Positions 31,693 through 43,508 are shown, numbered from the stretch's first letter. The stretch: 64,000 nt of DNA from an uncultured Sphaerobacteraceae bacterium (GCA_964526965.1 CAZGML010000005.1:8973-72972); one strand, 5' to 3'. Numbers and translations: made by a program. The notes: generated by a model not told the origin, from the letters alone.

Positions 31693-32292
31693 CTAAGTTT
31701 TGGCGCGATAAAGTCCACGTTCGAGAATGTAATTCTCGACGTTTTCTGGCACGAGGTACGTGATGGATTTTCGTTGGCGCCGACGCTCTCGAATCTCGCT
31801 TGAGGAAAGCTCGATGAGCGGCGAATCGAACTCGTGTATGCGTTCGGCAAGGCCAGGCAATGCATTGCGAATGCGGTTGTCGATGGTCGAGCCTGGGCGC
31901 TCAGCTACGCCAAGGGTCGCATGTTTCAGGATCGTCTCGGGCTCGTGCCAGTTCGCAAAGGTCGTCAGTGAATCCGCACCGACGAGGAAGACCAGCTCGG
32001 TATCTGGCATGGACTCAGCCAGCGATGCGAGTAGCTCGGACGTGTAGGATGGGCCGTCTCCGCGCAGGTCGAGACCGCTGAATGCGAACCTGCTGTCGAG
32101 GTGAACCGCCCGCCGCACCATTTCAGCTCGATGCTCCACCGGAGTGATTTCGTGGTGCTTGTGTGGAGGTGTCTGTGCCGGCATGAACCACACTTCGTCC
32201 AGATCGATCGCATCAGTCGCGTAGCTGGCCATCACGAGGTGGCCGATGTGGATAGGGTCAAATGTCCCGCCGAGAATGCCTAGCCGCCTCAT
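31693..32292 (-). CDS. nadD: Nicotinate-nucleotide adenylyltransferase
   Basis: The product contains GILGGTFDPIHIGHL. It overlaps the end of the upstream gene by 4 nt. Confidence 0.9.
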   Translation of the reverse strand: MRRLGILGGTFDPIHIGHLVMASYATDAIDLDEVWFMPAQTPPHKHHEITPVEHRAEMVRRAVHLDSRFAFSGLDLRGDGPSYTSELLASLAESMPDTELVFLVGADSLTTFANWHEPETILKHATLGVAERPGSTIDNRIRNALPGLAERIHEFDSPLIELSSSEIRERRRQRKSITYLVPENVENYILERGLYRAKT

Positions 32293-33134
32293 ACATCCTC
32301 CACCCGAACGATGGTGGCGTCCGGCAGTGCTGCGACGATCGCTTCGCCGATCTCGTGCTCATTGATCATTTGTTTGGCATTCACTGAAAATCTCACTTCC
32401 CATTCGGAGTTCGATTCCGCGTGTTGTACGAGAATCGGCGGTTCAAGGGGAGGGCGTACGCTCTCGATACCCTCGACCACCTTTTCCAGTGTCGACATGA
32501 GCTCTGTTGCGGGTAACGGCGACGTGATGCGATAGCGCACCACCCGCATGTTAAAGCGGGTGTGGTTCTGCAAAACTTCAGTGAACATGAGCTGGTTGGG
32601 CACCATCAGCAACGCGCCGTCATCCGTGCGCAACATGGTTGTGCGGATGTCGATACCCTGAACAGTGCCAACGTGGGTCCGAATCATCACCCGGTCGCCG
32701 ATGGCAAAGGGGCGTTCGGCCAACATGAAGAGGCCGGATATCAGGTTGCGCATGACATCCTGCAATGCCAGGCCAATTGCGACTGTGAAAGCAGAAGCCA
32801 GCGTGAGAAGTCCGGTAGAACTCACGCCCATAAATGAAAGCACACCAATAACCGCAAGCGCATAGGCGGCAATCGAGACGATTCGATAGGCGATCAGTGA
32901 GCCTTGCTTCCCGAATCGGGCCATAATCCGGCTTTCTCGCAGGCGATTGTTGAGCAACCACACCACTATCCAGGCAGCCGCCAAATAGAGTGCGGCCACA
33001 ACTGCGATTTCGCCGATATAGATCACGAAATCTAGAGCGCGTTCTCCGAATTTTCTCGCTGCGTCATCGAACAAATTCCGCCTCCCCGAAAATTGCTCGT
33101 ACGTGCATATGTTCGTACGCGCTTTACAAGACAA
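32289..33134 (-). CDS. Small-conductance mechanosensitive channel (MscS family)
   Basis: N-terminal TM segments are followed by PFAIGDRVMIRTHVGTVQGIDIRTTMLRTDDGALLMVPN. The start codon is uncertain. Confidence 0.8.
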   Translation of the reverse strand: MSCKARTNICTYEQFSGRRNLFDDAARKFGERALDFVIYIGEIAVVAALYLAAAWIVVWLLNNRLRESRIMARFGKQGSLIAYRIVSIAAYALAVIGVLSFMGVSSTGLLTLASAFTVAIGLALQDVMRNLISGLFMLAERPFAIGDRVMIRTHVGTVQGIDIRTTMLRTDDGALLMVPNQLMFTEVLQNHTRFNMRVVRYRITSPLPATELMSTLEKVVEGIESVRPPLEPPILVQHAESNSEWEVRFSVNAKQMINEHEIGEAIVAALPDATIVRVEDV

Positions 33135-33339: not shown

Positions 33340-34677
33340 GTGTCCCGTCCCGCTGCCGTCAGGAGCCTGTCTTTCGTGTCGCACCGATCAAACCGTGAGA
33401 ATCAGTATGATCCCGTCATGCCCGATCTTCCGGGTGACTCCTATGGTCGGGATGCAGATCTCTATCCACCAATTCCCGATTATCCGGCATACGATTATTG
33501 GGACGAAAGCAACTTCCAGGGCGATTTCGATTCCGAACGATACGCGCCGGACCTAGTAATCCATGATCGGTTTTCCGAGCTTCCCGAAGCGCCGGGTCGA
33601 CAGGAAGATCATGTCTCCGAACCGGGGCCACAGCCACGCCGAAAGCCATATAGGGAACGCAGACGCGAGGCACAGATGGCTGCTGCTGGCGACATCATCT
33701 ACGACGACATTCAGCCTGACACTTACCAGCGTCCTGGTCGTCGTCACCGTCGCGAAACTGATGAGGTAACAGACACCACGCTTCGCACCGCTTCTGTGCC
33801 AGCAGATGTTGTGACCGGAACTCGCAGTATCCCCCGATCCCGCTCGCGCCGGGCGCGTAATAGCCGGAGCGGGAGTTCTTCGTGGGGCTGGTCTCGCATT
33901 GTATTTCCATCATTCCGACAGATCCTGGAGCAAGCGCTTCCGACGCTAGTTATGGCGTTGTCACTGCTGCTTGGCCTTATCGTTATCCAGCGGTTGCCAT
34001 CCCTTGAAGGACTATGGGCACCAATTGTGTTGACGCCGTCGGTGGTGCTCTTCCTTCTCGCCGACAAACAGGTGCACCCGATGTGGCGACGCAGCGCCAT
34101 AATGAACCTGGGCATTGTCGGCGTGTTCTATCCACTGCTGATCGTGCGCCAGAGCTATGTGCGCGTACCGTATGTGGAGTGGGGGAATGGCACCCTGCAG
34201 ATGCCACTGGCAGCGACGGCGACGATCGTGATTCTGCTCGCGTTGATCGCGCTGGGCGCAGCCTGGATGAGCCAGGAAGACCCTGAATATGCCGGTGTGC
34301 TCTTCCTGCCGGCTGCAATGCTGGTGCCGTTTTACGCTGGTGCTACAGAGATCATGAGCCTTTCCACTTCGCTCATTATCGCGATTGGTGTCTTTCTCGC
34401 TGCCAGCCTGCTCACCGTTGTTGCAAGCATGTTGCCGGGCGCCTACCCGATGCTGGTCGCGCCGGTAGCGTTGGCGATTCAATTCTTTATCCTGCCACTT
34501 GCCGATAGCGTACCGATATTCCCGCTTGGTGCGGGAACTGCATCCAAGCTCTTGTTCTTCGTGGTGCTCGCTGCCACAGTGGGGCTTACCGTCGGCATGC
34601 CGAGTCTTGCTGGCTGGGTGCGCCAGGTGCGAGACCTGGTAAACAGCCAGTCCGTGGAGCCATCCCGAACGCACTAA
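33340..34677 (+). CDS. Hypothetical polytopic membrane protein with a roughly 190-aa Arg/Asp/Pro-rich disordered N-terminus
   Basis: The 445-aa ORF contains RRKPYRERRREAQ, RPGRRHRRETDE and SRSRRARNSRSG, followed by about 7 predicted TM segments. I see no recognisable family motif, and the start is uncertain. Confidence 0.5.
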   Translation: MSRPAAVRSLSFVSHRSNRENQYDPVMPDLPGDSYGRDADLYPPIPDYPAYDYWDESNFQGDFDSERYAPDLVIHDRFSELPEAPGRQEDHVSEPGPQPRRKPYRERRREAQMAAAGDIIYDDIQPDTYQRPGRRHRRETDEVTDTTLRTASVPADVVTGTRSIPRSRSRRARNSRSGSSSWGWSRIVFPSFRQILEQALPTLVMALSLLLGLIVIQRLPSLEGLWAPIVLTPSVVLFLLADKQVHPMWRRSAIMNLGIVGVFYPLLIVRQSYVRVPYVEWGNGTLQMPLAATATIVILLALIALGAAWMSQEDPEYAGVLFLPAAMLVPFYAGATEIMSLSTSLIIAIGVFLAASLLTVVASMLPGAYPMLVAPVALAIQFFILPLADSVPIFPLGAGTASKLLFFVVLAATVGLTVGMPSLAGWVRQVRDLVNSQSVEPSRTH

Positions 34678-37260: not shown

Positions 37261-37316
37261 ATACAGGGCTCCCACAAAGCTAACAGGAATCGTGAGCCTA
37301 ACAACTAAGAATACCG

Positions 37317-37344
37317 CAATTTCATTGATTTATCAATGAAATTG
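37317..37344. promoter_or_regulatory. Perfect 13+13 bp AT-rich palindrome upstream of gyrA (candidate operator)
   Basis: CAATTTCATTGAT-tt-ATCAATGAAATTG lies 57-84 nt upstream of the gyrA ATG. Confidence 0.45.
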
Positions 37345-37463
37345 GGTTCGGAGCGGTTAGGGGAAATAGCGTTGAGGGACGTACTTAATTAACAAGGTGA
37401 GGGCGCCTCCCTTGGGAATCGCCCCCACCACCGTTCCTGTTGAATTTTGCCACGCCAGCCGTG

Positions 37464-38468
37464 TTACTGCTGCTGTGTTCCGCACTGGGGACAGAACTTT
37501 GCGTTTGCCGGAATCTGCGCACCGCATTCGGTGCAGAACTTGGTGTCTCCAGCCGCACCACCGGCATTGCCCTGTTGTTGCTGTGGCTGTTGCTGGTTCT
37601 GTTGGTTGCCACCACCGCTAAAGGCGTCGCGGAAGGCGCCAGACATCGCACCAGCCATTCCAAGACCGGCTCCCATGCCCATACCCATACCGGCACCTTC
37701 GCCGGCTGTACCGGGATTATTGGCGGCATCGGCGATGCCTTGTGCGGTCTTGAACTTGAGGTATTCGTCCATATTGCCGATTGCGCCCATACCGGACCGC
37801 TGGTCGATCATCGCCTGGACTTCTTCAGGCGGGGTGATTGCCTGGATTTGGAAGCTCGTAAGCTCGAAGCCGTAGCGGGCGAAATCATCCGCTAACTCAG
37901 CCCTGGTGGCATCGCTCATTTCACGTGTCATGCGTGCGAGGTCGAGCAATGAAGTTTGAACATCCGCGAGAATGTCAGTGAAATCCTGAATGATGACACT
38001 GCGCAGGAAATCCTCAATCTGGCTGGTGGTATAGCTGCCACGGGCGCCGACGATCTGATTCACGAGCAACTGCGGATCCTTCACTCGCATTGAGTAGGTT
38101 CCAAACGCGCGAAGTCGCACCATGCCCAGGTCCGTATCCCGGAACGTGATTGGCTGCGTTGAGCCCCATTTCATGTTGGTGAACTCGCGCATGTTGATGA
38201 AATAGACCTCGGCCGTAAACGGTGAATCTCCACCGAAGGCCGCACCGATCAACCCACCCAGCAAGGGGATATTGTTCGTGCTGAGTGTGTGGCGGCCTGG
38301 ACCGAACATGTCCAGCGCCTTGCCATCTCGCATGAACACCGCGCGCTGGCTTTCCCGCACGACGAGTTGGGAGCCGAGGCGAAACTCGCCAGCGCCGTGT
38401 TCCGGCACGCGGCGGACGATATCGTTTGATCCCTCATCGGTATATTGAACCAGATCAAGAATGGCCAT
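37464..38468 (-). CDS. SPFH/band-7-like protein with a Gln-rich linker and C-terminal zinc ribbon (YdjI/COG4260-like)
   Basis: The 334-aa product contains GSQLVVRESQRAVFMRDGKALDMFGPGRHTLSTNNIPLLG. The C-terminus reads QQNQQQPQQQQGNAGGAAGDTKFCTECGAQIPANAKFCPQCG. Confidence 0.7.
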   Translation of the reverse strand: MAILDLVQYTDEGSNDIVRRVPEHGAGEFRLGSQLVVRESQRAVFMRDGKALDMFGPGRHTLSTNNIPLLGGLIGAAFGGDSPFTAEVYFINMREFTNMKWGSTQPITFRDTDLGMVRLRAFGTYSMRVKDPQLLVNQIVGARGSYTTSQIEDFLRSVIIQDFTDILADVQTSLLDLARMTREMSDATRAELADDFARYGFELTSFQIQAITPPEEVQAMIDQRSGMGAIGNMDEYLKFKTAQGIADAANNPGTAGEGAGMGMGMGAGLGMAGAMSGAFRDAFSGGGNQQNQQQPQQQQGNAGGAAGDTKFCTECGAQIPANAKFCPQCGTQQQ

Positions 38469-38512
38469 TATTGCCCCTTCTGCTCTCGGCTCCCTGGGAG
38501 AGCCACACCAAT

Positions 38513-39277
38513 CTATGAGTTCTGATCGTCGGTAACGATCTCACCTTGATGAACCTGACTCTCAGCGGATGAGCCGAGATCAGTCGTAGTGGCATCCTCT
38601 CCAGATTCGAGATAGCCGCTGTGGCCGCTCTTGAGCGCCTCAAGTTCCTTCTCGATATCGATGTCGTAATCGAGCTCGCGGAACTGTTCATCGTAGGAGT
38701 CTGACTGCATTTCGCCGATCGCAAGGGCTTCAGCCTCGGTCGCGCGGATACGGCGCTCCATGCGTTCCAGTTCATCGCTGGCATCCAGGGGCGTTAGCGA
38801 GACGTTGCTCGCCATCTGCGAAACCTGCTTGGTGGCCTGCGCACGCTTCTGGCGGGCAATCATGGAATCACGCTGGCTCAGTGTTTGCTGGTACTTGCTC
38901 TCCAGCTGGCGAAGTTGGTCCTTCAGGCGAGAGACAGTCTGAACCTGGATTTCATGCTGCTTGGCGTAAACAGCTGCATTTTCGTCCTGGTCGCGTTTGC
39001 GGCGCAGTGCCTCGCGTGCGAGGTCATCCTTGCCGGCGTCTACAGCGCGTTTGGCCTTGGCAGCCCACTCGGTGGCAAGCTGTTTGGTCTCGTCGAGGTC
39101 GGCTTCCAACTCTTTCTCTTGCGCAATCATTGATGCGACTTGAGAACGAGCGGTGCGAATGTTGGAATCCATATCCCGAAGGATCTGGTCGATCATCTTT
39201 TCAGGATCTTCTGCGCGATCCAGTACATCGTTGATATTGGCTCGAATCAGTCGGGACATGCGATCTAAAATACCCAT
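38513..39277 (-). CDS. pspA: PspA/IM30-family phage-shock protein A
   Basis: The product begins MGILDRMSRLIRANINDVLDRAEDPEKMIDQILRDM and has a long coiled-coil. Confidence 0.9.
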   Translation of the reverse strand: MGILDRMSRLIRANINDVLDRAEDPEKMIDQILRDMDSNIRTARSQVASMIAQEKELEADLDETKQLATEWAAKAKRAVDAGKDDLAREALRRKRDQDENAAVYAKQHEIQVQTVSRLKDQLRQLESKYQQTLSQRDSMIARQKRAQATKQVSQMASNVSLTPLDASDELERMERRIRATEAEALAIGEMQSDSYDEQFRELDYDIDIEKELEALKSGHSGYLESGEDATTTDLGSSAESQVHQGEIVTDDQNS

Positions 39278-39304
39278 TATGTTTCCTCCGATTGTGACAT
39301 CACG

Positions 39305-40258
39305 TCAGGCGACGCCGTAAACTTCGATATCCTTGTCCACAAGCGTGGTACCTGAGAACTGCTTAATGGTATCGCCGAAAGCCAGGGTAAGCTCCACCCG
39401 GTTATCCCCCAAATCTCGGTACGCATAGCGGGCAGGAACGCCATCTTCCTGACCCTGGCTGGTATCGATACTCGCAGTGCCATGCACCATGGTCTGGAAA
39501 CCACCGTCGCTTGAGGACTGCTCGGTGAGGTGCGCAGAATTCATGCCGGTAACAGAAGAGCCCAACAACCAGGTGGCGCCTTCCTGTTCTGCGGTCACGC
39601 GGGCAAGCAGCAGGTTTCCGTCATCAGTCTTCAGCGAGATAATGCCGTTGGCGATGTAGTTGTCTCCCAACACGCTTAGCGCATCGCCTTTTTTGAGTTG
39701 CAACAAGGGAGATGGTTCGACCGGTTCCGGCAAAGCCAGCAACTGCAAAGCCTGTTCATCTGCGGTTGGTTCACCGTTTTGCACAACCGTCCCGCGGCTA
39801 TCGAAGAGCGTGGACAGCCTGTTGATTTCATCCAGCATCCGGGTACGAGCATCATTGTCTGGCGGCGTGGAGGACGTGAGCTTCTTCACTTCTGCTGCAA
39901 GGGCGTCGACTTCGCGGAGCAGGGCAGAGTCGAACAGTCGGAGTTGCTCAAGCGCGGATTCGTCGATGCTGTTGTCCGTGAAGATGCCGCCGTAGCCGTA
40001 AGATGCAGTTCGAACCCGATCGGCCAACAGTCGGATCTGACCAATGGCCGGCTCGATTGCAGCAAGGGATTCGAAATCCCGCGCCTTGCTCAACTCCGCG
40101 TTGTAACGCGTGAGCGTATCCACCTGCGATACCAGCGCGTTAGCTACAGATTCGCGCACTTGCTTGTCGGCATCGCGCCGGGTCTCCTTGTCCTTATATC
40201 CCTTGTATCCGGGGATTTTATTGAGGCCACTTTGAATGAAGTTTTCAACGCTGGACAT
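39305..40258 (-). CDS. Psp-associated protein: helical N-domain plus a DUF4178-like beta-rich C-domain (YdjH-like)
   Basis: The 317-aa product has a C-terminal half reading LKKGDALSVLGDNYIANGIISLKTDDGNLLLARV...YAYRDLGDNRVELTLAFGD, which resembles DUF4178 as I recall it. Confidence 0.5.
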   Translation of the reverse strand: MSSVENFIQSGLNKIPGYKGYKDKETRRDADKQVRESVANALVSQVDTLTRYNAELSKARDFESLAAIEPAIGQIRLLADRVRTASYGYGGIFTDNSIDESALEQLRLFDSALLREVDALAAEVKKLTSSTPPDNDARTRMLDEINRLSTLFDSRGTVVQNGEPTADEQALQLLALPEPVEPSPLLQLKKGDALSVLGDNYIANGIISLKTDDGNLLLARVTAEQEGATWLLGSSVTGMNSAHLTEQSSSDGGFQTMVHGTASIDTSQGQEDGVPARYAYRDLGDNRVELTLAFGDTIKQFSGTTLVDKDIEVYGVA

Positions 40259-40290
40259 GGCGATAACGTCCTTTCCGAATGAGACGGTTC

Positions 40291-40812
40291 TTACAAGAAG
40301 ATTTCAGATCCACAGTAGGGGCACTTGATGACCCCTTTACCAGCGAGTTCAAGTTGCCCGCCGCAGTTTGGGCAGTTCGATTGTGCCTGTAGTGCCGTTG
40401 CATCTACGGAGTAGAGTACGCCGCGGTCCCAATCCACATAGCCGGAGAAGAGCCCTCGTCCGACCAGGTCATAAATGTCGTTACGGACCTTGTCCGTCGT
40501 GGCGTTAAGCTCGAGCACGAGGTCAGAAATCGCAACCTGGCCACGTGTTTTGACCATATCGAGGAGCTTGCGCTGTTCGCGCACATGGGCAAGGTTTCGT
40601 TCTTCCTCACTGCCTTTCCTGTACAGAAAAACTCCTGCGCCCAGAAGGGGGAGAATGAGTACGCCCCCGAAGAGGGCAGCACCGAAGGCGGCACCGGAAG
40701 CGTTGATTGTTCCTTCCTGGTTTCCGAAGAAGAGCCACAGTCCCAGCGCAATAGCGAGGACAACTCCAGCCACCGTGAGTATGAGCCCAACGGTTTTGCC
40801 ACGAGAGTGCAC
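40291..40812 (-). CDS. Two-TM protein with a cytoplasmic helical/wHTH-like domain and C-terminal zinc ribbon (YdjG-like role)
   Basis: The 173-aa product has TM segments VGLILTVAGVVLAIALGLWLFF and AALFGGVLILPLLGAGVFLY. The C-terminus reads CPNCGGQLELAGKGVIKCPYCGSEIF. Confidence 0.5.
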   Translation of the reverse strand: MHSRGKTVGLILTVAGVVLAIALGLWLFFGNQEGTINASGAAFGAALFGGVLILPLLGAGVFLYRKGSEEERNLAHVREQRKLLDMVKTRGQVAISDLVLELNATTDKVRNDIYDLVGRGLFSGYVDWDRGVLYSVDATALQAQSNCPNCGGQLELAGKGVIKCPYCGSEIFL

Positions 40813-40840: not shown

Positions 40841-41956
40841 TCACTTCAAGAGGTAATCTTCCAGAATTATACGCGTTTTATGTGCGGTTTGTTCCCAGGT
40901 GAATTTTTCGGCGTGCGCCTGTCCCTGTCTGATTAGCTGATCCCGCGTATCCGACTTGGTGATGAGCAACGTAATCGCATCTGCCAGCGCGGCTTGGTCG
41001 TCGTGCATGAACTGGATGGTGGCATCTCCTCCGATCTCATCCAGGGAACTGCCGTGAGCAGCAACCACGGGCGTTCCGCTGGCCATGGCTTCCAGTACCG
41101 GCATGCCAAAGCCCTCGAATTTCGATGGCTGAGCAAACACGGTTGCATTTCGATACAGTGCAGGTAAATCGGCGGATGGCACGTAATCCAGAATCTTGAG
41201 GTGGTCGCCGAGCCCGGCCTGGTTGAGTTGCCCGATCACGTCGTCATACATCCACCCCTTGCGACCGGCTACGACCAGATCGATATCGTGTTCTTGCAGC
41301 ACATCACTTACCGCCTTCGCTAGCACGCTAAGGTTTTTGCGCGGTTGAATGGTTCCTACCGCCAAAACATATGGACGGCGCAGGTCGTACTGGTGCCGAA
41401 GCTCACCATCGGTCTCATCTTTTCGTGCGGTCATGGCTGGGTTGATTCCATGGTGCACGACGCCGATCTTCTGCTCAGGGGTGTTGTAGAAGTTCACGAG
41501 GTCATCCGCCGTTTGCCTGCTGGGAACGATGATGTGGCGCGCGGTTTTGGCGCTCCAACGTGTTGTCAGGTCCAGCATGCGGCGCTGGCCGGGCGGATGC
41601 GCTTCTGGCCAGTGGAGATAGCCAAGATCATGAATGGTGACGACCGTAGGCGGATGATAGAGAGGCACCACATGTGCCGGCACAAAAAGTCCGGTAACAC
41701 GATTAGCCATTAACTCCCGCGAGAGTCGCCAGTGTGTCCAGAGTCGGCGGCCTGGAATGTCTCGAATTTCAACGCTGCTGGATTCATCTACCCCAAGGTC
41801 GCCGGCATTGCCGTTGACATACAGACGCCAGCCGTAGTCGACGGGTTGGCTCACCAGGGCACGGATGAGCTCTGCTGAGTAGTTCTCCGTGCCCGTGCGA
41901 ATCCGGCCCACCGCGCGGCTGGCGTCGAGGCCGATTATTTGATCTGGCCCAGGCAC
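40841..41956 (-). CDS. GT-B fold glycosyltransferase (family 4-like)
   Basis: The 371-aa product contains PSKFEGFGMPVLEAMASGTPVVA. Confidence 0.82.
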   Translation of the reverse strand: MPGPDQIIGLDASRAVGRIRTGTENYSAELIRALVSQPVDYGWRLYVNGNAGDLGVDESSSVEIRDIPGRRLWTHWRLSRELMANRVTGLFVPAHVVPLYHPPTVVTIHDLGYLHWPEAHPPGQRRMLDLTTRWSAKTARHIIVPSRQTADDLVNFYNTPEQKIGVVHHGINPAMTARKDETDGELRHQYDLRRPYVLAVGTIQPRKNLSVLAKAVSDVLQEHDIDLVVAGRKGWMYDDVIGQLNQAGLGDHLKILDYVPSADLPALYRNATVFAQPSKFEGFGMPVLEAMASGTPVVAAHGSSLDEIGGDATIQFMHDDQAALADAITLLITKSDTRDQLIRQGQAHAEKFTWEQTAHKTRIILEDYLLK

Positions 41957-41959
41957 GAA

Positions 41960-42415
41960 TTAATCGGCCATTGGGCTGGGAACGAGAGCGAACATCAGCT
42001 CGCCCCTGCATGCAAGTTCGCCATCGACGGTTGCAGTGGCCGTGCAGGTGCCAACTCCACGGCGAAACTGACCAAGCTCCACAGTCATCAGAAGCTGGTC
42101 GCCTGGCTTCACCTGGCGCTTGAAGCGGACTTTGTCGATGCCGGCGAACATGGCGAGTTTGTCCTTGTATTCGTCAAGAACCATCAACGCAACGCCGCCG
42201 GTCTGCGCCATTGCTTCAACAATCAGCACTCCTGGCATGACAGGGTATTCGGGGAAATGTCCCTGGAAGAAGGGCTCGTTCGCCGTCACGTTCTTCACCC
42301 CCACTGACTTTTCGCCCGGTTCCAGTTCGATAATCCGGTCCACCAGCAGGAACGGATAGCGGTGGGGGAGCAGTTCGCGAATGGCGAGACTGTCCATTGG
42401 CAGGGTGATTTCCAT
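41960..42415 (-). CDS. fabZ: 3-hydroxyacyl-ACP dehydratase
   Basis: The product contains [13 protein letters not shown] and [16 protein letters not shown]. Confidence 0.94.
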
Positions 42416-42494
42416 AGTTGATTTTTCCTCTCAGAACTGCGGGTACCATAGGTAAATGTACGAGCAGTCTACGGAGTATCACTGGAGCCCGTCA

Positions 42495-43508
42495 ATGAAG
42501 CGCACGACAGGAAAGCTGGCCGTTATAGGTTCTGGGGCGTGGGGAACCACCCTCGCGCTCGTGGCGAACAGGGCTGGCACCGATACCACCCTTGTGGTTC
42601 GAAATGATGAGGTTTTCGCTTCGATGCGCGACGCTCGAGTGCACCCGCACTCGTTGCCAGGCATCGAAATACCGCGAGAGATCACCCTTTCACAGGATGT
42701 AACGAGCGCGATAGATGGGGCGGATGCGGTACTTTTCGTGGTGCCCACACAAAAACTGCGTGGAGCCATTGAGCCGATCGCGACCCGGCTCCGGGGCAAG
42801 ATCGTGAACACTGCCTCGAAGGGGATCGAGATCGGGACGTCGATGTTGCCGAGCCAGATTCTTGAAGATGTCATAGGCACCTTTGCTGATACACCGATTG
42901 CCGTGCTTTCCGGTCCGAACCTGGCCGGGGAGATCGCTGTCGGCAAGCCCGGCACTACGGTCATTGCCAGCGAAAATCTGGATGTAGCAGATGCCATGCA
43001 ATCGATGATGATGGGGGAGATGTTCCGCGTCTACACGGCTTCGGATGTGATCGGTGTGCAGTTTGGCGGGGCGCTGAAGAATATCATCGCGATTGGCGCC
43101 GGTATCGGCGACGGACTTGACGCTGGGGACAACGCCAAGGCTGCGTTTATGACGCGCGGGATCGCTGAAATCACCCGACTCGGCACGCATTTCGGTGCCG
43201 ATGCCCTCACGTTCGCCGGCCTCAGCGGGATTGGTGACCTTATTTGCACCTGCTCCAGCACCCTTTCGCGTAACCATCGGGTGGGTGCCGGGATTGCTGC
43301 CGGTAAATCGCTGGACGAAATTATTTCATCAATGTCCGAGGTTGCCGAGGGTGTGGATACCACGCGGGCAACGGTCGAGATGGCACGACATCACGGCATC
43401 GAGATGCCGATTGCCACCGAGATGAGCAAGGTACTGTTTGAAGGAAAGTCGCCGATGGAAGCGGTTCGCGAGCTTATGGTCCGCGAACCGCGGCGGGAGA
43501 AGGTCTAG
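42495..43508 (+). CDS. gpsA: NAD(P)H-dependent glycerol-3-phosphate dehydrogenase
   Basis: The product contains KLAVIGSGAWGTTLA and GALKNIIAIGAGI. The ATG at 42495 follows GGAG. Confidence 0.92.
   Translation: MKRTTGKLAVIGSGAWGTTLALVANRAGTDTTLVVRNDEVFASMRDARVHPHSLPGIEIPREITLSQDVTSAIDGADAVLFVVPTQKLRGAIEPIATRLRGKIVNTASKGIEIGTSMLPSQILEDVIGTFADTPIAVLSGPNLAGEIAVGKPGTTVIASENLDVADAMQSMMMGEMFRVYTASDVIGVQFGGALKNIIAIGAGIGDGLDAGDNAKAAFMTRGIAEITRLGTHFGADALTFAGLSGIGDLICTCSSTLSRNHRVGAGIAAGKSLDEIISSMSEVAEGVDTTRATVEMARHHGIEMPIATEMSKVLFEGKSPMEAVRELMVREPRREKV

Follow-up and report, generated by a model that had tools for sequence, protein, structure and literature searches.

The pspA-ydjG-ydjH-ydjI operon of Bacillus subtilis is the closest described relative of the system reported here. 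Its products are known at the level of domains: YdjI is a soluble SPFH protein with a segment of low complexity and a C-terminal zinc finger, YdjH is a membrane-associated protein with a TPM_phosphatase domain and a low-complexity tail, and YdjG combines two N-terminal zinc ribbons with a YpeB/NTF2-like domain and a transmembrane (TM) segment; it was shown experimentally that the soluble YdjI and PspA require membrane partners (Scholz et al. 2021, PMC8581546; Ravi et al. 2024, PMC11237479). PspA homologues also occur in the CesT/Tir-PspA operons, in which DUF4178 is found with a spermine-synthase-like protein and DUF350 (Ravi et al. 2024, PMC11237479). Proteins of the SPFH subfamily Band_7_1 (PF13421) with a C-terminal SHOCT are already described in the passages of Eberhardt et al. 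2013 (PMC3581485) that deal with PF13421. We analyzed a 64,000-nucleotide stretch of DNA, referred to as the window, from an uncultured Sphaerobacteraceae bacterium (GCA_964526965.1 CAZGML010000005.1:8973-72972). It contains, at positions 37464-40812, a cluster of four minus-strand genes for a predicted membrane anchor (g1), a two-domain adaptor (g2), PspA/IM30 (g3, or pspA) and a YdjI-type soluble SPFH protein (g4, or the SPFH gene). The cluster is a real and conserved operon, whose PspA-SPFH theme is itself already known. We consider it fairly probable that g1-g2-pspA-SPFH is a membrane-maintenance operon of the cytoplasmic face, with an anchor-adaptor-SPFH core to which PspA would be linked by g2.

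The operon and its described counterparts

An earlier note on this DNA, made from the sequence alone, had reported four minus-strand genes with gaps of 27-44 nucleotides (nt), and the open reading frames (ORFs) lie exactly at the coordinates that it gave. They are g1 (173 amino acids (aa); 40291-40812), g2 (317 aa; 39305-40258), g3 (254 aa; 38513-39277) and g4 (334 aa; 37464-38468), separated in this order by 32, 27 and 44 nt. A Shine-Dalgarno-like purine run stands ahead of all four starts. In a scan for hydrophobic segments, TM segments were seen in g1 only, and g2, PspA and SPFH were devoid of them. The g3 protein is a canonical PspA/IM30, as had been proposed: its residues 2-217 align to positions 1-216 of the 220 in PF04012 (E=7.5e-51; 173.3 bits, cut-off 33.9). 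It scores 131 bits with TIGR02977, under the equivalog cut-off, and its last 37 aa or so form an acidic tail. The g4 protein likewise has the SPFH, linker and zinc-ribbon layout that had been read from its sequence. The Band_7_1 domain occupies residues 27-228 (37785-38390, minus strand; PF13421, E=1.1e-66, 225 bits, cut-off 24), and a Gly/Met/Gln-rich linker at residues about 250-305 is followed by one C4 zinc ribbon that takes up residues 309-332 (37473-37544, minus strand; PF13240, E=3.5e-9, 36.6 bits, cut-off 25). The scan of the SPFH protein for a TM or hydrophobic segment found none.

Homologues of g1 and g2 come from metagenome-assembled genomes (MAGs) of Thermomicrobiales/Chloroflexota, which places the window in the order Thermomicrobiales. 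A scan with the g2 alignment, at one genome per species, recovered 56 loci, all from Thermomicrobiales/Chloroflexia (numbered, like the other related loci, with the prefix L). The order g1-g2-pspA-SPFH is preserved across them wherever the sequence is long enough, apart from the lack of pspA in L045 and L051. Among the 46 loci that reach both flanking genes, pspA lies between g2 and SPFH in 44, these two being the exceptions, and the linkage to pspA thus extends to the relatives. Identities range over 46-91% for g1, 27-80% for g2, 52-87% for PspA and 54-88% for SPFH, g2 being the fastest-evolving of the four. Because the order is kept in 56 species-level genomes while g2 identity drops to 27%, the arrangement is far beyond chance. 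The profile matches and the conserved order together uphold the claim of a conserved PspA and SPFH membrane module.

The likeness to the B. subtilis operon lies in the presence of PspA and a Band-7/zinc-ribbon protein in one operon (here 44 nt apart), in the published YdjI architecture of g4 (soluble SPFH, low-complexity linker, C-terminal ribbon) and in additional small proteins that include a ribbon-bearing membrane protein. The expected logic is alike as well, in that membrane partners would recruit SPFH and SPFH would recruit PspA. Yet the correspondence with the window operon stops at two components out of four, namely PspA and the YdjI-type SPFH protein. The published domain descriptions set g1 and g2 apart from YdjG and YdjH. 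The TPM domain of YdjH is absent here; the g2 protein has neither a TM segment nor any Pfam family, TPM included, at E<=1, and no TPM match is found among the g1 matches listed (25 of 40), all of them under cut-off. The layout of g1 reverses that of YdjG, with two TM helices followed by a PCI-like winged helix and a single C-terminal ribbon, and without an NTF2-like domain. The gene order differs, pspA being first in B. subtilis and third here, and the Bacillus operon is regulated by sigma-W, whereas the window operon comes from Chloroflexota.

These comparisons bear on the possibility that the cluster is pspA-ydjG-ydjH-ydjI shuffled, with g1 a YdjG homologue and g2 a YdjH homologue. PspA and a YdjI-type SPFH protein with a ribbon are present and adjacent, g1 is, like YdjG, a membrane protein with a zinc ribbon, and a soluble SPFH protein and a PspA that require membrane partners fit the Bacillus logic. 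The missing TM segment and TPM match of g2 and the reversed layout of g1 nevertheless count against such homology, as does the occurrence of g1 and the N-terminal domain of g2 (hereafter the N-domain) alongside SPFH in loci without PspA. This last observation indicates that g1 and the N-domain belong to a distinct SPFH module, and we regard the shuffled-operon explanation as very unlikely. The cluster is not, as earlier described, the Bacillus module with its genes in another order: a TPM domain is absent, as is a pair of N-terminal ribbons combined with an NTF2-like domain, and neither g1 nor g2 is homologous to YdjG or YdjH.

Other known systems share single features with the locus. The CesT/Tir-PspA operons likewise encode a beta-rich cytoplasmic DUF4178 together with a PspA homologue. 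They contain CesT/Tir (DUF2170), polyamine enzymes and DUF350, however, all of which are missing from the six-gene string of the window, and their DUF4178 is standalone, whereas the one in the window is fused to the SPFH-partner helical domain. DUF4178 belongs to the polyamine-type context of CesT/Tir-PspA operons and not, as had been supposed, with YdjH. The Band_7_1-SHOCT proteins are of the same SPFH subfamily as g4 and also bear a small C-terminal head behind a flexible linker; the window protein bears a single zinc ribbon instead. The passages on PF13421 and 'Band' in Eberhardt et al. 2013 (PMC3581485) make no mention of an upstream N-domain partner. In our loci, SHOCT-tailed Band_7_1 proteins were found adjoining N-domain genes. 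Finally, the stomatin/flotillin-NfeD systems (YqiJ/YuaF) pair an SPFH gene with a small dedicated partner, sometimes with PspA in addition (in part after Ravi et al. 2024). There the SPFH protein is itself anchored in the membrane and its partner is an NfeD-type TM protein, whereas in the window the SPFH protein is soluble and has two partners, one of them a TM anchor and the other a four-helix adaptor that is soluble as well.

The two domains of the adaptor protein

In the AlphaFold2 model of g2 (predicted local distance difference test (pLDDT) score of 86.5), four long helices lead into a domain made up wholly of beta strands, about 11 in number; the model bears out the helical N-terminal and beta-rich C-terminal domains that the earlier note had discerned. 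The N-domain spans residues about 5-165 (39764-40246, minus strand), with helices at 24-58, 62-84, 100-127 and 135-161. Its signature is PGYxGYxDKExRRDxDK ... SYGYGGIF ... LxQLRxFD, and the motifs of the family are PGYxGYxxKExRRxxDK, SYGYxGxF and LDxLYxFD. Pfam holds no model for it; the family consensus and diverse members give scattered coiled-coil noise only. Over residues 8-144, g2 matches NCBIfam NF047596 (LIMLP_15305) at E=2.9e-9, but with 37.1 bits against a cut-off of 210. By its profile score, LIMLP_15305 is a related family, of which g2 is not a member; a literature search on it returned only a locus tag in a small-RNA table. When 1.84 billion representative proteins were searched with a profile, 1298 relatives of the N-domain came up. 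Only about 70 of these are full-length, and the majority are standalone proteins of 170-190 aa that cover residues about 5-160.

The genomic context of these standalone proteins is nearly uniform on one side. In five Anaerolineae MAG contigs annotated with Pfam, a standalone N-domain gene lies directly 5' of a Band_7_1 SPFH gene; a YccF-like gene with four TM segments precedes the pair in three of the five, and PspA is found in none. A scan of metagenomes with an eight-sequence subset (A4), whose sample is biased to members containing YGYAG[LFW]FD, found 80 N-domain loci. In 61 of them the sequence extends far enough downstream, and in 60 of these the N-domain gene is followed on the same strand by a Band_7_1 gene at a distance of 10-233 nt. 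Upstream, where 58 loci had enough sequence, the neighbor is a full-length g1 homologue in 21 (41-52% identity over the full length), a YccF-like gene in 7 and an unrelated gene in 30. The PspA profile had no match in 83 N-domain loci. This family without a Pfam model is therefore a near-obligate neighbor of Band_7_1 SPFH genes, a partnership that we did not find in the literature searched. On the strength of this linkage we propose the N-domain of g2 as an SPFH-partner domain. A core of membrane anchor, N-domain adaptor and soluble Band_7_1 SPFH protein is widespread in Chloroflexota.

In the SPFH proteins of the N-domain loci, a low-complexity linker leads to an interchangeable head, which is a double or single zinc ribbon, HTH_17 or SHOCT. 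The head tracks the upstream anchor. A g1 gene goes with zinc ribbons in 10 of 12 loci and a YccF-like anchor with an HTH_17 head in all 6 loci that have a complete SPFH gene, counts that are not phylogenetically independent. Examples of these heads, HTH_17 being of excisionase type, are L065:5565-6570, L061:6559-7605 and L080:5586-6610, recorded among L064-L143. One N-domain protein, P0377, itself has an N-terminal ribbon and a PQ-rich linker of the SPFH-tail type.

Several other variants were observed in the N-domain family. The proteins P0357, P0367, P0321, P0315 and P0381 (370-435 aa) have Gly/Pro/Gln/Ser-rich low-complexity tails of 200-260 aa in which no domain was detectable, and which recall the tails described for YdjH and the SPFH linkers. 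In one metagenomic lineage, a small additional ORF separates the g1 homologue from the N-domain gene (L080:4602-4991, L084:3278-3823, L085:2426-2839, L087:1308-1814 and L104:3180-3551). The motif GSVSRGDFNLGSDLDILIISEG makes its product a putative nucleotidyltransferase-like protein of the MNT/Pol-beta type. Two apparent g1-g2 fusions, P0312 and P0326, were rejected, their sequences being frameshifted read-through of adjacent genes that arose as gene-calling or assembly artefacts; for this reason they were dropped as Rosetta-stone evidence.

The C-domain of g2 (residues about 186-317; 39308-39703, minus strand; AlphaFold2 and profile-profile comparison) is predicted to have 11 strands. The earlier label of 'DUF4178-like' proved right, by transitive evidence only, the window protein itself having no Pfam match. 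Neither the full-length window g2 nor its 33 close homologues match DUF4178 (PF13785) at E<=10, and the cropped C-domain of the window protein matches no Pfam family at E<=1. Among the cropped C-domains of 47 positional orthologues, however, 14 match DUF4178, and no other family is matched by more than two. The full-length orthologues of L038 and L045 reach 61.1 and 41.9 bits, respectively, against a cut-off of 25, with the whole profile covered. The consensus of all g2 C-domains matches DUF4178 at E=0.0015, and hhalign aligns the clade of the window with that of L038 over 127 columns (97.3% probability, E=2.3e-11). By this chain of profile comparisons, the C-domain of g2 is a divergent DUF4178. 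Foldseek searches of the PDB returned nothing significant for g2 (best E=0.03, poor TM-score), and no fold family was assigned.

In 44 of the 46 loci from Thermomicrobiales, a DUF4178-bearing adaptor is accompanied by an adjacent pspA, and the loci that have only the N-domain contain neither. We accordingly propose, from this co-occurrence, that the C-domain is a PspA-linked module. L045 (1846-4885) and L051 (5424-7700) keep g1-g2-SPFH but have no pspA between the last two genes. At 243 aa, the adaptor of L051 is short, and it lacks DUF4178. Since DUF4178 is retained in L045, the domain has no strict need of an adjacent PspA. The same locus fits a role for DUF4178 that has nothing to do with PspA, such as the sensing of polyamines or other small molecules, in which case pspA would be a mere inserted neighbor and g2 would not bridge the two proteins. 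Elsewhere DUF4178 does occur in operons with spermine-synthase-like and DUF350 genes, and the beta domain of g2 weakly resembles meander barrels that bind small ligands (Foldseek E 0.03-0.2, poor TM-scores). No polyamine genes are found in or beside the cluster, however, pspA follows directly 3' of g2 (27 nt away in the window) in all but two of the 46 loci, and PspA is what both operon classes with DUF4178 have in common. We therefore deem a PspA-independent role unlikely.

The membrane protein and a proposed assembly

The g1 protein had been noted for two TM segments and a C-terminal CxxC..CxxC ribbon, and both are present. Two hydrophobic segments, which are helices in the AlphaFold2 model, lie at residues about 4-32 and 38-60, and the motif CPNC...CPYC at residues 147-167 supplies the four cysteines of a C4 zinc ribbon (C147, C150, C164 and C167). 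In the model (pLDDT 70), a membrane helical hairpin, whose second helix is prolonged into the cytoplasm as a long helix, is followed by a winged helix at residues about 78-136 and by the ribbon. Positive charges at both ends of the hairpin predict an N-in/C-in topology. Foldseek compares the winged helix almost exclusively with those of the PCI type in the PDB (CSN2, Rpn subunits of the proteasome lid, DDRGK1), at 27% identity, a root-mean-square deviation of 3.0 A, a probability of 1.0, E about 5e-3 and TMq of 0.33-0.38. The Pfam results point the same way below threshold: DDRGK is matched at E=8e-4 (19.5 bits, cut-off 27.8), the family consensus matches PCI at E=0.011, and no match of g1, the zinc-ribbon ones included, rises above its cut-off. 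The wing and the ribbon are strongly conserved among 1400 homologues.

PCI winged helices are protein-assembly modules. Given the PCI-like fold predicted for it, and given that the sequence of the domain is net acidic, we favor for the modeled g1 the part of an anchor and docking platform over that of a DNA-binding regulator. A membrane-tethered regulator or sensor, whose winged helix and ribbon control the operon or other genes under envelope stress and for which g2, SPFH and PspA act downstream or as modulators, would draw on the same modeled winged-helix fold and on a weak match to HTH_DeoR (E=0.0021). Zinc ribbons and helix-turn-helix (HTH) domains are also frequent in membrane-proximal signaling proteins of PSP-related systems, and HTH_17 is among the SPFH tails of related loci. 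Every HTH profile match of g1 is under its cut-off, however; the top structural matches are to PCI/DDRGK domains, whose function is to assemble proteins and not to bind DNA, the domain is acidic, and a search for an operator-like repeat upstream of the cluster found none. There is in our judgment only a small chance that g1 is such a regulator.

Since only g1 has TM helices, the g2, PspA and SPFH proteins would need it to reach the membrane. We suggest that g1 displays its PCI-like winged helix and ribbon beneath the membrane and tethers the SPFH oligomer there, probably through the ribbon tail of SPFH. The N-domain of g2 would bind this complex of SPFH and anchor, and its DUF4178 domain would bind PspA. 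In this manner an ESCRT-III-like PspA polymer may be brought to membrane sites marked by SPFH, as YdjI, YdjG and YdjH do in B. subtilis. We deduce all of these contacts from the linkage of the genes and the fusion of the domains, and a role of the operon in the stress response is likewise inferred. The Thermomicrobiales differ from the widespread core in two linked respects, the addition of DUF4178 to the C-terminus of the adaptor and the presence of pspA between adaptor and SPFH. In our reading, an anchor-adaptor-SPFH module recruited PspA by means of the DUF4178 fusion. The accompanying fusion favors a gain of PspA in the Thermomicrobiales rather than a loss elsewhere.

Several observations weigh against this picture. 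The window g2 is under every Pfam threshold for DUF4178, and L045 has a DUF4178-bearing adaptor and SPFH with no pspA between them, so that the coupling is not absolute. The co-occurrence of DUF4178 and PspA may go back to no more than one or two events in the evolution of a single order. The 30 N-domain loci (of 58) with an unrelated upstream gene have no anchor gene there, and the g1 model is of moderate confidence, with its fold matches at E about 5e-3. More tentative still is a sharper formulation, which we put forward as a possibility that falls short of an even chance. The four-helix PGYxGY/YGYGG domain would be a dedicated and so far undescribed partner of Band_7_1 and DUF4178 a PspA-binding domain, so that g2 would be a 'Rosetta stone' for the two, and the SPFH tails would serve as address labels for the anchors.

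Operon limits, genomic neighborhood and significance

The earlier note had placed the four genes in a longer co-directional string of fabZ, glycosyltransferase, module and gyrA; the gyrA end of this string must be cut, and co-transcription with the fabZ end is plausible in this genome. A terminator-like hairpin (37391-37435, minus strand) begins about 28 nt after the SPFH stop and is followed by UUAAUU. As RNA it folds at -29.3 kcal/mol (z=-4.6 relative to shuffles). Of 17 relatives checked, 11 have GC-rich hairpins at the corresponding site, mostly with a T run after them (L006, L007, L008, L015, L021 and L044 among them). Based on these hairpins, the operon likely ends at SPFH, and gyrA, which starts at 37275, about 190 nt downstream of SPFH, is likely a separate transcription unit. 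In relatives, gyrA is usually the next gene after SPFH, at times behind insertions. At the other end, a GT4 glycosyltransferase gene (40841-41956, minus strand; Glycos_transf_1, E=9.5e-32) lies 28 nt upstream of g1 and 3 nt from fabZ (41960-42415, minus strand; NF000582, 198 bits, cut-off 113), the first gene of the string. With gaps this short and no terminator, these two genes are plausibly co-transcribed with the module. A sigma-70-like hexamer pair upstream of fabZ (42466-42495, minus strand) has 9 of 12 matches, not above the expectation from shuffles.

The functional coupling to envelope lipid or glycan synthesis that had been suggested from this string is not sustained by the comparison. 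Almost every Thermomicrobiales locus has fabZ upstream of g1, a linkage confined to this order. The glycosyltransferase is optional: about two in three related loci have it, between fabZ and g1, and about one third lack it. The neighbors of the module in Anaerolineae relatives are unrelated. The fabZ linkage is thus a lineage synteny, as judged from gene order. One could extend the same explanation to the whole cluster and see in it unrelated housekeeping genes kept in synteny within one order, with no functional module, since the flanking lexA, DUF4126, dnaJ, purA, gpsA, fabZ and gyrA are syntenic across Thermomicrobiales as well. Against this, other Chloroflexota classes also have the N-domain/SPFH pair, frequently accompanied by g1, amid wholly different flanks; the intergenic gaps are short, the only terminator comes after SPFH, and the coupling of PspA to SPFH has been shown experimentally in Bacillus. 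We hold it extremely unlikely that synteny explains the cluster. A defence-system reading was also considered and dropped, PADLOC giving no match.

The surroundings of the operon hold some further features. Upstream of gyrA is a perfect AT-rich palindrome with 13-bp arms, CAATTTCATTGAT-AA-ATCAATGAAATTG (37317-37344, minus strand), which overlaps a sigma-70-like pair, TTGATA-17-TATTCT, ahead of gyrA. Its sequence is not conserved in the related loci checked; it might act as an operator or as a promoter element sensitive to supercoiling. In L001 (11781-13733), an IS605-family OrfB/TnpB (Cas12f1-like) gene follows SPFH at the usual position of gyrA. Downstream of gyrA in the window lies a gene for an MscS-type mechanosensitive channel (32289-33134, minus strand; PF00924, E=8e-21). 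Divergent from it is the gene for a 445-aa multi-TM protein (33340-34677, plus strand) whose N-terminus is long, disordered and Arg/Pro-rich and for which Pfam gives no match.

To our knowledge, the targeting of PspA/IM30/Vipp1 polymers to membrane sites is poorly understood beyond E. coli and Bacillus, and we know of no experimentally shown link between SPFH and PspA other than YdjI. The locus analyzed here presents the same PspA-SPFH pairing in Chloroflexota, with accessory proteins that are unrelated to those of Bacillus. It offers a first functional context for the N-domain family, which numbers over 1,000 representative proteins and has no Pfam model, and a second, independent PspA context for DUF4178. 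The hypotheses that it raises are testable in vitro, namely that the N-domain binds Band_7_1, that DUF4178 binds PspA and that the tail heads pair with specific anchors. If they are true, the fusion in g2 would show an SPFH platform passing physically to an ESCRT-III-like PspA polymer, and the zinc-ribbon, HTH_17 and SHOCT tails of SPFH proteins would be address labels for distinct anchors, g1 or YccF-like.

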